From the IMG/VR virus record IMGVR_UViG_2571042372_000009: DNA of 16,793 nucleotides; one strand, written 5' to 3'. The stretch is from a virus. Taxonomy: Duplodnaviria > Heunggongvirae > Uroviricota > Caudoviricetes. The notes under the pieces were generated by a model, which saw only the letters and a program-made list of their open reading frames with translations, searched no databases and had not been told where the DNA came from. The position numbers and the translations under genes are program-made. Below are positions 11,320-16,793 of the stretch, one piece after another; within the stretch, counting starts at the first letter, position 1, and each line of letters opens with the position of its first letter.

Positions 11320-11395
11320 GGCCCTTTAGCTCAGTGGTGAGAGCGAGCGACTCATAATCGCCAGGTCGCTGGTTCAAATCCAGCAAGGGCCACCA
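11320..11395 (+). tRNA. tRNA with CAU anticodon (Ile2/lysidine type or Met), 76 nt
   Basis: Manual fold: acceptor GGCCCTT/AAGGGCC, D-arm GCTC/GAGC, anticodon loop CTCATAA, T-loop TTCAAAT, 3' CCA encoded. Resembles ileX/ileZ-type genes as recalled. Confidence 0.85.
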
Positions 11396-11402
11396 TCACA
11401 TA

Positions 11403-11479
11403 CCGCCATTAGCTCATCAGGAAAGAGCGCCAGCCTTCGAAGCTGGTTGCGCGGAGTTCGGGTCCCCGAAGGCGGTCCA
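11403..11479 (+). tRNA. tRNA-Arg (UCG anticodon), atypical, 77 nt
   Basis: Manual fold: anticodon stem CCAGC/GCTGG with loop CTTCGAA. One acceptor-stem mismatch (A6/A67), one T-stem mismatch, and T-loop TTCGGGT with G at the usually conserved A58 position. CCA encoded. Confidence 0.6.
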
Positions 11480-11492
11480 TTATCTGTATCCT

Positions 11493-11569
11493 GCGTTGTT
11501 AGCTCAGCCGGACAGAGCAATTGCCTTCTAAGCAATCGGTCACTGGTTCGAATCCAGTACAACGCGCCA
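11493..11569 (+). tRNA. tRNA-Arg (UCU anticodon), 77 nt
   Basis: Manual fold: perfect acceptor stem GCGTTGT/ACAACGC, anticodon stem ATTGC/GCAAT with loop CTTCTAA, T-loop TTCGAAT, CCA encoded. Confidence 0.85.
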
Positions 11570-13948: not shown

Positions 13949-14482
13949 ATGAACGCAAAAATCAAATACGGCCTGTCAGCTGCAGTTCTGGCGCTGATTG
14001 GAGCAGGCGCATCAGCTCCTCAGATACTTGACCAGTTTCTGGATGAAAAAGAGGGTAACCACACTACGGCATACCGCGATGGTTCCGGCAACTGGACCAT
14101 CTGTCGGGGGGCCACGATGGTGGATGGAAAACCCGTTTTTCCCGGTATGAAACTGTCGAAGGAAAAATGCGACCAGGTCAACGCCATTGAGCGTGATAAG
14201 GCGCTGGCATGGGTGGAGAAAAACATCAAAGTGCCATTGAGCGAACCCCAGAAAGCGGGGATCGCGTCATTCTGTCCGTACAACATTGGTCCCGGTAAGT
14301 GTTTCCCGTCGACGTTTTATAAACGAATTAATGCAGGTGATCGCAGGGGAGCGTGTGAGGCGATTCGCTGGTGGATTAAGGACGGTGGCAGAGACTGCCG
14401 TATTCGTTCAAACAACTGCTACGGTCAGGTATCCCGTCGTGACCAGGAGAGCGCGCTGGCGTGCTGGGGTATCGACAGATAA
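13949..14482 (+). CDS. R: SAR endolysin (T4-lysozyme-like muramidase, phage 21 R-like), 177 aa
   Basis: N-terminal signal-anchor-release segment KYGLSAAVLALIGAGASAP and catalytic E-x8-D-x5-T triad (EGNHTTAYRDGSGNWT). Confidence 0.9.
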   Translation: MNAKIKYGLSAAVLALIGAGASAPQILDQFLDEKEGNHTTAYRDGSGNWTICRGATMVDGKPVFPGMKLSKEKCDQVNAIERDKALAWVEKNIKVPLSEPQKAGIASFCPYNIGPGKCFPSTFYKRINAGDRRGACEAIRWWIKDGGRDCRIRSNNCYGQVSRRDQESALACWGIDR

Positions 14483-14780: not shown

Positions 14781-15245
14781 ATGAACCGCGTACTGTGCGT
14801 GGTCATCATTGCCCTGCTGGTGGCCTGTGGTGCGCTTAGTCTGGGGCTGAATCATTACCGTGATAACGCCATTACCTACAAAGCCCAGCGCGACAAAAAT
14901 GTCAGAGAACTGAAGCTGGCGAACGCGGCAATTACTGACATGCAGATGCGTCAGCGTGATGTTGCTGCGCTCGATGCAAAATACACGAAGGAGTTAGCTG
15001 ATGCGAAAGCTGAAAATGATGCTCTGCGTGATGATGTTGCCGCTGGTCGTCGTCGGTTGCACATCAAAGCAGTCTGTCAGTCAGTGCGTGAAGCCACCAC
15101 CGCCTCCGGCGTGGATAATGCAGCCTCCCCCCGACTGGCAGACACCGCTGAACGGGATTATTTCACCCTCAGAGCGCGACTGATAATAATGCAAAAACAA
15201 CTTGAAGGGGCACAGCTATACATTCGAGAGCAATGCCTCAGATAA
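14781..15245 (+). CDS. Rz: Spanin inner-membrane subunit Rz (i-spanin), 154 aa
   Basis: N-terminal transmembrane segment, coiled-coil-like body, and an embedded Rz1 gene in the +1 frame. Confidence 0.85.
15001..15183 (+). CDS. Rz1: Spanin outer-membrane lipoprotein subunit Rz1 (o-spanin), 60 aa, embedded in Rz
   Basis: Signal peptide with lipobox VVGC and a proline-rich mature region ([13 protein letters not shown]), entirely inside Rz in another frame. Confidence 0.8.
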
Positions 15246-15552
15246 AAACCGGCCAAGGATAATCCGCTGAAGATTCGCCGGTGGCTAAAGTGTGCCAAGA
15301 GTTCAATTTACGCAATTACTCCTGTCGATGCTATGTACCGTCTTTGTGAAGTCAATGGATACCTGATTTATTTCTGTGCGCTGTATCGTCGCTGTACTCT
15401 TGCATTAATTATGACTGTAGCCTGACGGGGAACTCCTTCTGCACAAGTGTGGGGGAATAATCAAAAACGATGCACACCGGGGTTACCGGGTACACATATT
15501 TCATCATGCCAGCGAGTCCGGTTCTGGCACGGAAGAAACCGGACGTTATGAT

Positions 15553-15978
15553 TTAGTGCGGAAATATTTGTGTAGTGTTCTGAATGTTCTCAGTAAAGAG
15601 TAATGAATTATCAAAGGTATAGTAATACCTTTTGTTTTCGTGGATATTTGTAATCCATCTGAAAACCCCTGCTGTAGCAAGATTTTTCCTGTATTCGTAA
15701 AATGATAACTCTCCTGATTTGAATCCTTTTAAGGTGGCTTCTATAAGGCATTTATTTTTTGAAAATCTTACATTTACAACCTTACCCTGTCCTTTTATTA
15801 AAACCGTATTATCGTTTTCAAGAACAAGATGAATATTCTCTGTGGCTAAATAGTAAATGTAATGTGAGACATTGTGACGTTTTAGTTCAGAATAAAACCA
15901 GTGATAGTTTAAATTATTTCGCACTTTATCGAATATTTGTTTAAAAATGGCAATCTGAGCCATTGTAGTACCTTCCAT
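15553..15978 (-). CDS. Hypothetical AT-rich moron protein (possibly YbcV/DUF1398-like), 136-141 aa
   Basis: AT-rich minus-strand ORF. The second ATG (15961-15963) has SD GGAAGG upstream and is the more likely start. Family naming is tentative recall. Confidence 0.55.
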
Positions 15979-16020
15979 GTGATATGAGGGGGGGTAGTCT
16001 GCACGATTATCTAAATTGCT

Positions 16021-16254
16021 TCAATCTGGTCTGACCTGTTTTCTGAGCAATTCAGTAATGTCACTCTTTTCTTTGTTTGCTTCAGGCGAAACTCTTTTTT
16101 CTGAGCACAGTCTCCGGCGGCAGGCTTCAATGACCCAGGCTGAGAAATTCCCGGACCCTTTTTGAACAAGAGCGATGTTAATTTGTTCAATCATTTGGTT
16201 AGGAAAGCGGATGTTGCGGGTTGTTGTTCTGCGGGTTCTGTTCTTCGTTGACAT
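16021..16254 (-). CDS. Ribbon-helix-helix (Arc/CopG-like) small DNA-binding protein, 77 aa
   Basis: ...RNIRFPNQMIEQINIALVQKGSGNFSAWVIEACRRRL fits the beta-strand/helix/helix RHH pattern. Located 42 bp upstream of the 141-aa ORF on the same strand. Confidence 0.55.
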   Translation of the reverse strand: MSTKNRTRRTTTRNIRFPNQMIEQINIALVQKGSGNFSAWVIEACRRRLCSEKRVSPEANKEKSDITELLRKQVRPD

Positions 16255-16453
16255 GAGGTTGCCCTGTATTCAGTGTCGCTGATTTGTATTGTCTGAAGTT
16301 GTTTTTACGTTAGGTTGATGCAGATCAATTAATACGATACCTGCGTCATAATTGATTATTTGACGTGGTTTGATGGCCTCCACGCACGTTGTGATATGTA
16401 GATGATAATCATTATCGCTTTACGGGTCCTTTCCGGTGATCCGACAGGTTACG

Positions 16454-16465
16454 GGGCGGCGACCT
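16454..16465. other. cosN cohesive-end sequence GGGCGGCGACCT
   Basis: Exact match to the recalled lambda 12-nt cohesive end. The preceding about 180 nt (16270-16453) resemble the lambda right end (cosQ region); downstream diverges. Confidence 0.8.
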
Positions 16466-16561
16466 CGCGGTTTTTCACTATTTATGAAAATTTTTCAGGG
16501 AAAATCGTGTCGGTACTTCTCGAATATAACTTTTTGTTTTTTTTAATATTGCATTCATAAA

Positions 16562-16616
16562 TGTCCGACATGAAAGTGTCCGAAAATGCCTTTTTCTGGC
16601 GTTTTCATGTCGGGCC
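16562..16616. promoter_or_regulatory. cosB-like region with three R-type repeats for terminase small-subunit binding
   Basis: TGTCCGACATG (16562-16572), TGTCCGAAAATG (16577-16588) and inverted CATGTCGGGCC (16606-16616), between cosN and the terminase small-subunit start. Confidence 0.55.
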
Positions 16617-16640
16617 TTGTATTTGATAATGGGTTGTTCT

Positions 16641-16793
16641 ATGAAGGTTAATAAAAAGAGGCTTGCCGAAATTTTTAACGTGGACCCGCGGACGATTGAA
16701 CGCTGGCAGTCTCAGGGGCTCCCTTGCGTCTCCAAAGGCAGTAAGGGCATTGAATCTGTATTTGATACTGCCATGGCAATTCAGTGGTATGCG
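16641..16793 (+). CDS. Terminase small subunit (Nu1 / phage 21 gp1-like), N-terminal fragment truncated by window end
   Basis: [29 protein letters not shown]... parallels recalled lambda Nu1 (MEVNKKQLADIF...TIQNWQEQGMP), a winged-HTH N-terminus. Lies immediately downstream of cos. Confidence 0.85.

Follow-up and report, generated by a model that had tools for sequence, protein, structure and literature searches.

The ynfO and DUF1398 genes beside cos in a lambdoid prophage of Escherichia coli: likely two separate accessory genes rather than a co-evolved pair

Two short minus-strand genes lie between the spanin genes and the cohesive-end site of a lambdoid prophage, and their arrangement raises the question of whether they form one functional unit, such as a toxin-antitoxin pair, or are separate genes that share a site. 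We address this question in a window of 16,793 nucleotides (IMG/VR record IMGVR_UViG_2571042372_000009), by which we mean the whole stretch of DNA that was analyzed. An earlier note on this DNA had described two minus-strand genes 42 bp apart between Rz and cos, and both points were confirmed: the two ORFs are present at that spacing, with Rz and Rz1 on one side of the pair and cosN on the other (Table 1). The position of cosN shows that the right end of the phage genome is where the pair lies. The description of the site as a classic moron slot was likewise borne out, as ynfO, like bor, occupies that slot in antisense orientation to late transcription. The statement that both genes are AT rich held for the DUF1398 gene, which has a GC content of 31%, but not for ynfO (45%).

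Table 1. Features of the ynfO/DUF1398 locus and its neighbors, in window coordinates
Feature	Position	Strand	Size	Remarks
Lysozyme gene	13949-14482			5' of Rz in the window
Rz	14781-15245			Rz1 embedded
Rz1	15001-15183			Embedded in Rz
8-bp perfect inverted repeat (GTCCGGTT/AACCGGAC)	15516..15544		8 bp	Just 3' of the DUF1398 stop codon; conserved in lambda
DUF1398 gene (ydfO/ybcV family), longest ORF	15553-15978	minus	141 aa	
DUF1398 gene, probable extent	15553..15963	minus	136 aa	From the second ATG
Candidate -10 hexamer GATAAT	16006-16011	minus		
ynfO/ylcI-family gene (DUF3950, NCBIfam YlcI_YnfO_N)	16021-16254	minus	77 aa	
Hypervariable C-terminal tail of YnfO	16021..16104	minus		Qin type, ...SPEANKEKSDITELLRKQVRPD; marks a mosaic junction; from alignments; GC 38%
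PdhR-box-like palindrome AACAGGTCAGACCAGAT	16024..16040	minus		Shares bases with the ynfO stop codon; the DUF1398 start lies about 45-60 bp downstream
ynfO codons 1-50, conserved probable ribbon-helix-helix domain	16105..16254	minus		Basic arm MSTKNRTRRTTTRN, IRFP strand, helix 19-32, G33 turn, helix 34-54
ynfO upstream region, extreme right end of the lambda-type genome	16255..16452			Matches the final 200 bp of lambda at ~99% identity
Imperfect inverted repeat	16324-16356		13 nt	In the ynfO upstream region
cosQ	about 16423-16429			Homology to the annotated cosQ of phage 434
cosN cohesive-end sequence GGGCGGCGACCT	16453-16464	plus		From sequence and alignment to lambda
nu1	start 16642			Past cosN

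The window is a lambdoid prophage of E. coli. Several complete genomes match the entire 16.8 kb at 100% identity, and the 1.45 kb around ynfO and the DUF1398 gene is 100% identical to the corresponding DNA of UTI89, S88, IHE3034, ATCC 11775, and other strains.

Two catalogued gene families

Both genes belong to families that are already catalogued, YnfO/YlcI (DUF3950) and YdfO/YbcV (DUF1398). The 77-aa protein matched Pfam PF13132 (DUF3950) with 72.8 bits against a cutoff of 25 (E 2e-20) and NCBIfam NF041551 (YlcI_YnfO_N) with 35.2 bits against a cutoff of 30, and in the 100%-identical genomes the PGAP/RefSeq name of the gene is "ynfO: YlcI/YnfO family protein." Its identity is 99% to ynfO of the K-12 Qin prophage and 81% to a 64-aa ORF of lambda, a ylcI homologue that lies on the complementary strand at about 48.1-48.3 kb (about 48110-48303) and is unannotated in the classical lambda records. 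The larger protein matched Pfam PF07166 (DUF1398) with 147 bits against a cutoff of 22 (E 3e-43, model positions 1-119 of 119), and the 136/141-aa sequence matched the NMR structure of YdfO (PDB 2HH8) with an E value of 2e-69. Its lambda counterpart, lambdap78, is 74% identical, and RefSeq names an identical sequence "DUF1398 domain-containing protein." The second proposal of the earlier note, that these are the YlcI/YbcV-type genes of DLP12-like prophages, is thus correct, on the DUF3950 and DUF1398 family matches, the PGAP names, and the identity to Qin.

Both are genuine genes. The DUF1398 gene probably starts, to judge from the sequence, at the second ATG (15963), which gives 136 aa and a spacer of 57 bp; a GGAAGG Shine-Dalgarno sequence lies 6-7 nt 5' of this codon, the first ATG has none, and PGAP places the start at the second ATG in UTI89 and K-12. 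Purifying selection was evident in comparisons with lambda and K-12 (omega 0.22-0.33). Codons 1-50 of ynfO are under strong purifying selection: when the window or lambda was compared with an Stx2a phage, dS was 0.81-0.90, dN was 0.07-0.08, and omega was about 0.1. These codons have a GC content of 48.7%, against a window average of 48.5%.

We found no signal peptide or membrane segment in the DUF1398 protein, which is soluble and cytoplasmic and has an alpha/beta fold of its own (2HH8). When a low-confidence predicted model was used as the query, 2HH8 was the sole fold neighbor. Comparisons with toxin, Pfam enzyme, and PADLOC models yielded nothing above noise. Three candidate identities were rejected: HEPN_AbiA_CTD (E 0.013) and Csx23 in PADLOC-DB 2.0 (E 0.026) were sub-threshold, and anthranilate synthase (E 8.5e-4) scored 18 bits against a cutoff of 576. 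The labels "head protein" and "envelope protein" that DUF1398 carries in some phage records are unsupported, and apparent DUF3950-DUF1398 fusion proteins in databases (P0014 and P0010) are gene-calling artifacts.

Published work bears on the function of the family in several ways. CRISPRi knock-down of lambdap78 left lambda plating unaffected, with an efficiency of plating of about 1.9 (PMC10695390); the gene is dispensable for lytic growth of lambda. ASKA over-expression of ybcV produced a glycogen phenotype, in a list that also holds the toxins YoeB and HokA, and growth effects of the DUF1398 family would be compatible with this phenotype (PMC2853380). A reported increase in resistance to oxidative stress on YdfO over-expression (PMC4077768) goes back to Wang et al. 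2010, whose subject is yfdO of CPS-53, not ydfO, and the report was rejected as evidence. A prophage relationship has been noted for ycgX, a K-12 paralog (PMC3509220).

The earlier note also saw a ribbon-helix-helix (RHH) signature in YnfO. AlphaFold2 predicted an extended basic N terminus followed by helices 19-32 and 34-54 hinged at G33 (pLDDT 83-86), and the motif RNIRFPNQMIEQI resembles, by eye, FNLRWPREVLDLV of Arc and FNFRMPMEVREKL of Mnt. Profile comparisons gave no significant RHH match. By hhalign, residues 12-33 of YnfO aligned with residues 9-30 of Arc in the register of the motif at an E value of only 0.016, and the alignments to Mnt (E 0.23) and CopG (E 0.69) were not significant. 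Pfam RHH families matched none of 20 YnfO family members at E<=10, a PDB profile search and Foldseek returned nothing relevant, and PADLOC-DB 2.0 defense models gave zero matches for YnfO. An RHH fold is plausible but statistically unproven, and it is our best guess, which we hold to be likely. Arc and Mnt (phage P22 immI) and CopG may be the nearest functional analogues, as distinct from proven relatives within the RHH superfamily. Like the predicted YnfO domain, theirs has a size of about 50 aa with a basic N-terminal arm, an N-[ILF]-R-[FWM]-P strand motif, and then a helix, a Gly turn, and a second helix, and arc and mnt, like ynfO, lie inside the late-gene region of a temperate phage. Unlike that shared architecture, their sequences and profiles have no significant match to YnfO.

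Distribution and mosaic structure of the two genes

The two genes differ widely in abundance. By tblastn in 50,697 phage records, YnfO was found in 153 and DUF1398 in 43. A YnfO match in Pasteurella phage Pmp7, at a gene named "transcriptional repressor," lies on the opposite strand to that gene and was discarded. Across 5426 complete E. coli genomes, the totals per gene were 8362 places for the conserved 155-bp part of ynfO and 3411 for DUF1398. We also compared 80 IMG/VR loci that carry ynfO, a deliberately diverse sample, and DUF1398 was absent from 57 of them. In phages 434 and ev207, ynfO is followed by bor, and in the Stx2a phage WGPS6 it stands alone, 41 bp from a divergent HNH gene.

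DUF1398 also occurs without ynfO. A scan that covered one genome per species, based on an alignment of 6 sequences, recovered about 35 loci with DUF1398 genes of <=53% identity, and none had ynfO within 4 kb. These ynfO-free loci include E. coli ycgX and genes of Citrobacter, Klebsiella, Kluyvera, Raoultella, Pseudocitrobacter, and Salmonella diarizonae; their chromosomal contexts are unrelated, and no conserved small gene lies upstream of DUF1398 across them. DUF1398 genes of the ydfO/ybcV type (>=70% identity) in a lambdoid context always have ynfO upstream on the same strand.

Conservation of YnfO is confined to its N-terminal domain. Between lambda-type and Stx-type phages, homology starts at the ynfO start codon and stops near codon 50, and beyond this point the 80 IMG/VR loci hold at least eight unrelated types of tail. 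The Qin-type tail alone is linked to an adjacent DUF1398 gene, and in this sample the linkage is perfect.

The closest known case is ynfO-ydfO of the K-12 Qin prophage (b4533 and b1549), which has the architecture of the window: divergent nohA/nu1, ynfO, a 57-bp spacer, and a DUF1398 gene. The Qin and window loci have the same type of YnfO tail, and ynfO together with the spacer, including the PdhR box, is about 99% identical. Exactly at the DUF1398 start codon, nucleotide identity falls to about 85%, such that the two prophages carry different DUF1398 alleles. On this nucleotide comparison, the start codon is a mosaic breakpoint, and together with the GC contrast (45% versus 31%) it points to separate origins of ynfO and DUF1398. 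Unlike Qin, the window prophage still has intact lysis genes and cos.

The next closest cases are the right-end ORFs of lambda and DLP12, where the order is bor, lambdap78/ybcV, lambdap79/ybcW, the 64-aa ylcI homologue, and cos. Both families are present there on the same strand and at the same end of the genome, the ~200 bp that lead up to cosN match the window at about 99% identity, and residues 1-50 of YnfO are nearly identical. However, in lambda and DLP12 about 570 bp with ybcW (lambdap79), on the opposite strand, separate ylcI from DUF1398 and are absent from the window; bor lies downstream, and the window has neither bor nor ybcW; and the YlcI tail is short (AYTSIKSDEE), unlike the Qin-type tail of the window. 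In an RNA-seq survey of K-12, ybcW-ylcI is one of the transcript pairs that overlap convergently (PMC12288877).

On its other side, ynfO has a far more regular neighbor. At all informative loci in the sample of 80, it is divergent from the first packaging gene. In lambda-type loci this gene is nu1, which lies 389-539 bp away on the far side of cos; in loci with an HNH-TerS-TerL system it is the HNH endonuclease gene, and the distance is then exactly 42 bp. The two packaging types have no conserved DNA in common upstream of ynfO, so that no shared promoter or operator can be assigned.

Expression signals and host control

Scans of the minus strand found no consensus sigma-70 promoter for ynfO or DUF1398 and no terminator between them. 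With neither a terminator nor a clear consensus promoter between the genes, co-transcription is possible. The perfect repeat just beyond the DUF1398 stop codon could form a hairpin at the transcript end but is not a canonical terminator; its fold of -17.7 kcal/mol is not significant (z only -1.3), and a U-run is absent on the minus strand. An Rfam search of positions 15000-16793 returned zero RNA families.

The spacer holds a more specific signal. The PdhR-box-like palindrome AACAGGTCAGACCAGAT has one exact copy in the window and is identical to the K-12 Qin site between ynfO and ydfO, where a PdhR genomic-SELEX (gSELEX) peak has been reported (PMC7660256). In the same work, a related PdhR site was located in DLP12 between ybcV and ybcW, and ybcV mRNA was down 10-fold in a pdhR mutant (PMC7660256). 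The core of the box, GGTCAGACC, was present at only 2 of the 80 sampled IMG/VR loci, whichever gene follows ynfO, and is degenerate in many Qin-type loci. The PdhR site in the spacer suggests host control of DUF1398 that is independent of ynfO.

Silencing by nucleoid proteins is suggested by two published observations. When MotB of T4, which binds DNA and copurifies with H-NS, was over-expressed, ybcV and ybcW of DLP12 went up more than 1000-fold, although prophage genes were induced as well (PMC7827196), and a response to Hha/YdgT has been described for ycgX (PMC3686432). DUF1398 thus probably has host-controlled expression of its own, with a PdhR box, likely nucleoid-protein silencing, and presumably a separate promoter.

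Alternative readings and implications

We consider it likely that ynfO and DUF1398 are two separate accessory ("moron") genes and not a co-evolved two-gene system. The proposal of the earlier note that they form a toxin-antitoxin, addiction, or exclusion pair did not survive the survey of conservation, in which each gene was found without the other among homologous phages and genomes. In a type II toxin-antitoxin, addiction, or abortive-infection module, DUF1398 would be the toxin and YnfO an RHH antitoxin and autorepressor, a reading that we regard as highly improbable. The layout does recall systems with RHH antitoxins (ParDE, RelBE, MazEF of M. tuberculosis, and TacAT), in which a small RHH-like gene lies directly 5' of a larger same-strand gene, as it does here, and whose antitoxins bear a weak structural resemblance to the N-terminal domain of YnfO; a weak PHROG match of a HicB-like family (E 0.055) and the linkage of the Qin-type tail to DUF1398 point the same way. 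However, the locus lacks three testable features of type II systems: paired inheritance, a toxin-family partner, and a conserved neutralizing region. The YnfO tail, which would be expected to neutralize the toxin, is not conserved, and DUF1398 of lambda is accompanied by a different, 14-residue tail. Paralogs of DUF1398 such as K-12 ycgX stand alone, and the family matches neither toxin families nor PADLOC models, with 2HH8 as its only fold neighbor. YdfO was produced alone for the NMR structure, which by inference argues against strong toxicity, and the knock-down of lambdap78 was neutral. The two genes also differ in base composition (45% versus 31% GC) and in mosaic history.

Without being a toxin-antitoxin system, the pair could still be one functional unit, for example with a conditional lysogenic-conversion or exclusion function, in which YnfO would be a dedicated repressor of DUF1398 in the Qin/window arrangement, possibly acting through the GGTCAGACC palindrome. 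We judge this regulator-effector cassette unlikely. It would account for the shared strand, the 42-57 bp gap with no terminator, the palindrome just upstream of DUF1398, and the constant position of ynfO 5' of ydfO/ybcV-type DUF1398 genes in lambdoid contexts. Against it, most copies of ynfO have no DUF1398 downstream, so that the conserved function of YnfO cannot be the control of DUF1398; lambda and DLP12 have an opposite-strand gene between the two; and the palindrome is a documented PdhR site that is degenerate in many Qin-type loci. The same-strand position of ynfO, the linkage of the Qin-type tail, and the absence of a terminator are also explained by physical linkage in one mosaic block. 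Another possibility, which we rate as very unlikely, is that YnfO has a function linked to DNA packaging or to read-through of the late operon across cos, perhaps as a DNA-binding accessory factor or a regulator where the lysis and packaging genes meet, with DUF1398 as an unrelated passenger. Such a role would fit the strong purifying selection on the 50-residue domain and the invariable position of ynfO, which lies divergently beside the first packaging gene both in the lambda Nu1/cos system and, at a fixed 42 bp, in the unrelated HNH-TerS-TerL system. To our knowledge, no YnfO-like factor has been needed in decades of genetic work on lambda packaging or for packaging in vitro, which argues against this role. 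Moreover, ynfO runs antisense to late transcription, it occupies what is also the classic moron slot, and its upstream DNA is not conserved between the packaging types. A 2026 survey identified YlcI/YnfO genes in capsid-forming PICIs of Enterobacter, and the presence of these genes in elements with their own TerS/TerL would favor a packaging role (PMC13612085).

If ynfO and DUF1398 are separate accessory genes, as we favor, the locus could be understood as follows. The first ~50 residues of YnfO would most likely form an Arc/CopG-like RHH domain, and the protein would presumably act as a dimeric DNA-binding regulator. The ynfO gene is a fixed feature of the boundary between lysis and packaging genes, always transcribed against the late operon. 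Downstream of it, DUF1398 is an optional, AT-rich, horizontally acquired insert that is probably under host control, exerted by PdhR and possibly by nucleoid-protein silencing.

We see a small chance that the YnfO domain is an Arc-like protein that nearly all lambda-like phages keep for a specific, conserved role. Its carriers include lambda, Stx phages with the unrelated HNH-TerS-TerL packaging system, and capsid-forming PICIs. If such a role exists, YnfO might control, according to the prophage state, read-through into the packaging genes, or it might control a host target; where the genes are arranged as in Qin and the window, YnfO might also gate DUF1398 as an exclusion or stress effector.

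As a discovery, the pair carries little weight, as both genes belong to annotated families that lambda, K-12 prophages, and thousands of E. coli genomes carry. In a 2024 review of the E. coli y-ome, ynfO and ydfO are still counted as uncharacterized genes (PMC11551758). A toxin-antitoxin annotation of ynfO-DUF1398 is tempting and should not be propagated. The ~50-residue YnfO domain beside the packaging genes offers a concrete and cheap experimental target in lambda.

Doubtful records of DUF1398 proteins

In many phage records (NC_001416, NC_019711, and NC_042057, among others), DUF1398 proteins are named "head protein" or "putative envelope protein." The former label goes with PHROG 413, which is placed in the category head and packaging. 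Neither name has any support for the product of the DUF1398 gene of the window (15553-15963). This is a soluble protein (NMR structure 2HH8) that lacks signal and membrane segments, and plating was unaffected by knock-down of lambdap78, the lambda homologue. These labels are probably an annotation error that has been passed between records. A report that cells overexpressing YdfO better withstand oxidative stress (PMC4077768, citing PMC3105296) was set aside as a mis-citation; the cited study deals with three proteins of prophage CPS-53, YfdK, YfdO, and YfdS, and nowhere mentions ydfO.

Apparent DUF3950-DUF1398 fusions were found in two metagenome protein clusters, P0014 (233 aa, 761 members) and P0010. 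In the window, ynfO and the 141-aa ORF lie in the same reading frame (15553-16254, minus strand), separated by one TGA and no further stop. Because a tryptophan stands at the position of that TGA in both clusters, we rejected them as natural fusions and regard them as gene-calling artefacts that arose when AT-rich contigs were translated with table 4.

Lambda DNA in unrelated genomes

A search of genome contigs recovered lambda DNA within dozens of "genomes" and MAGs from unrelated organisms (L012-L033 and L045-L048), for example in Pseudomonas, Kitasatospora, Brevibacillus, Flavobacterium, Bradyrhizobium, and Arcanobacterium "plasmids." The lambda DNA in these entries takes the form of contigs of either ~3.5 kb or ~48.5 kb. 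The most likely explanation is contamination by sequencing control DNA, namely, the nanopore 3.6-kb lambda amplicon and the lambda spike-in. The lambda right end is also present in the record "Campylobacter phage CJLB-4."

Noncoding features of the window and DNA upstream of ynfO

Noncoding features of the window, with coordinates and context
Feature	Position	Strand	Description
Three tRNA genes	11320-11569		Downstream of DNA-methyltransferase gene, upstream of lysis genes
Non-coding spacer, Rz to DUF1398 stop codon	15246-15552		307 bp; site of bor in lambda
TTGTCTGAAGTTGT	16288-16301	+	Match to CII-box consensus TTGYN6TTGY
ATCAATTAATACG / CGTCATAATTGAT	16324-16356		13-nt imperfect inverted repeat; 85% complementary, 7 nt apart

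ARAGORN assigned the three tRNA genes to Met(CAT), Arg(TCG), and Arg(TCT); the first of them is annotated by PGAP as tRNA-Ile in UTI89. An isoleucine assignment is the expectation for a lysidine-modified CAT anticodon. In the spacer between Rz and the DUF1398 gene, ~130 bp is unique and homology to lambda picks up again only at ~15377, from which we conclude that bor is absent from the window. No Rfam family matched this spacer.

Upstream of ynfO, the CII-box match, which is a consensus match only, runs antisense to the ynfO 5' leader, and a consensus CII site is marked at the equivalent position in the curated phage 434 record. The inverted repeat lies ~70 to 100 bp upstream of the ynfO start and is wholly kept in lambda, 434, and ev207; it is absent upstream of ynfO in Stx-type phages, which carry HNH-TerS-TerL packaging genes. 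A protein might bind at this repeat, which would then serve as an operator or, given a role in packaging, as a site left of cosQ.

In the HNH-TerS-TerL phages, the start codons of ynfO and of the divergent HNH gene are always 42 bp apart, a spacing seen at locus L154 (2094-2728) and in 37 of the 80 classified IMG/VR loci. Any ynfO promoter must therefore fall within the HNH coding region, and hardly any space is left in these phages for regulatory DNA that belongs to ynfO alone.
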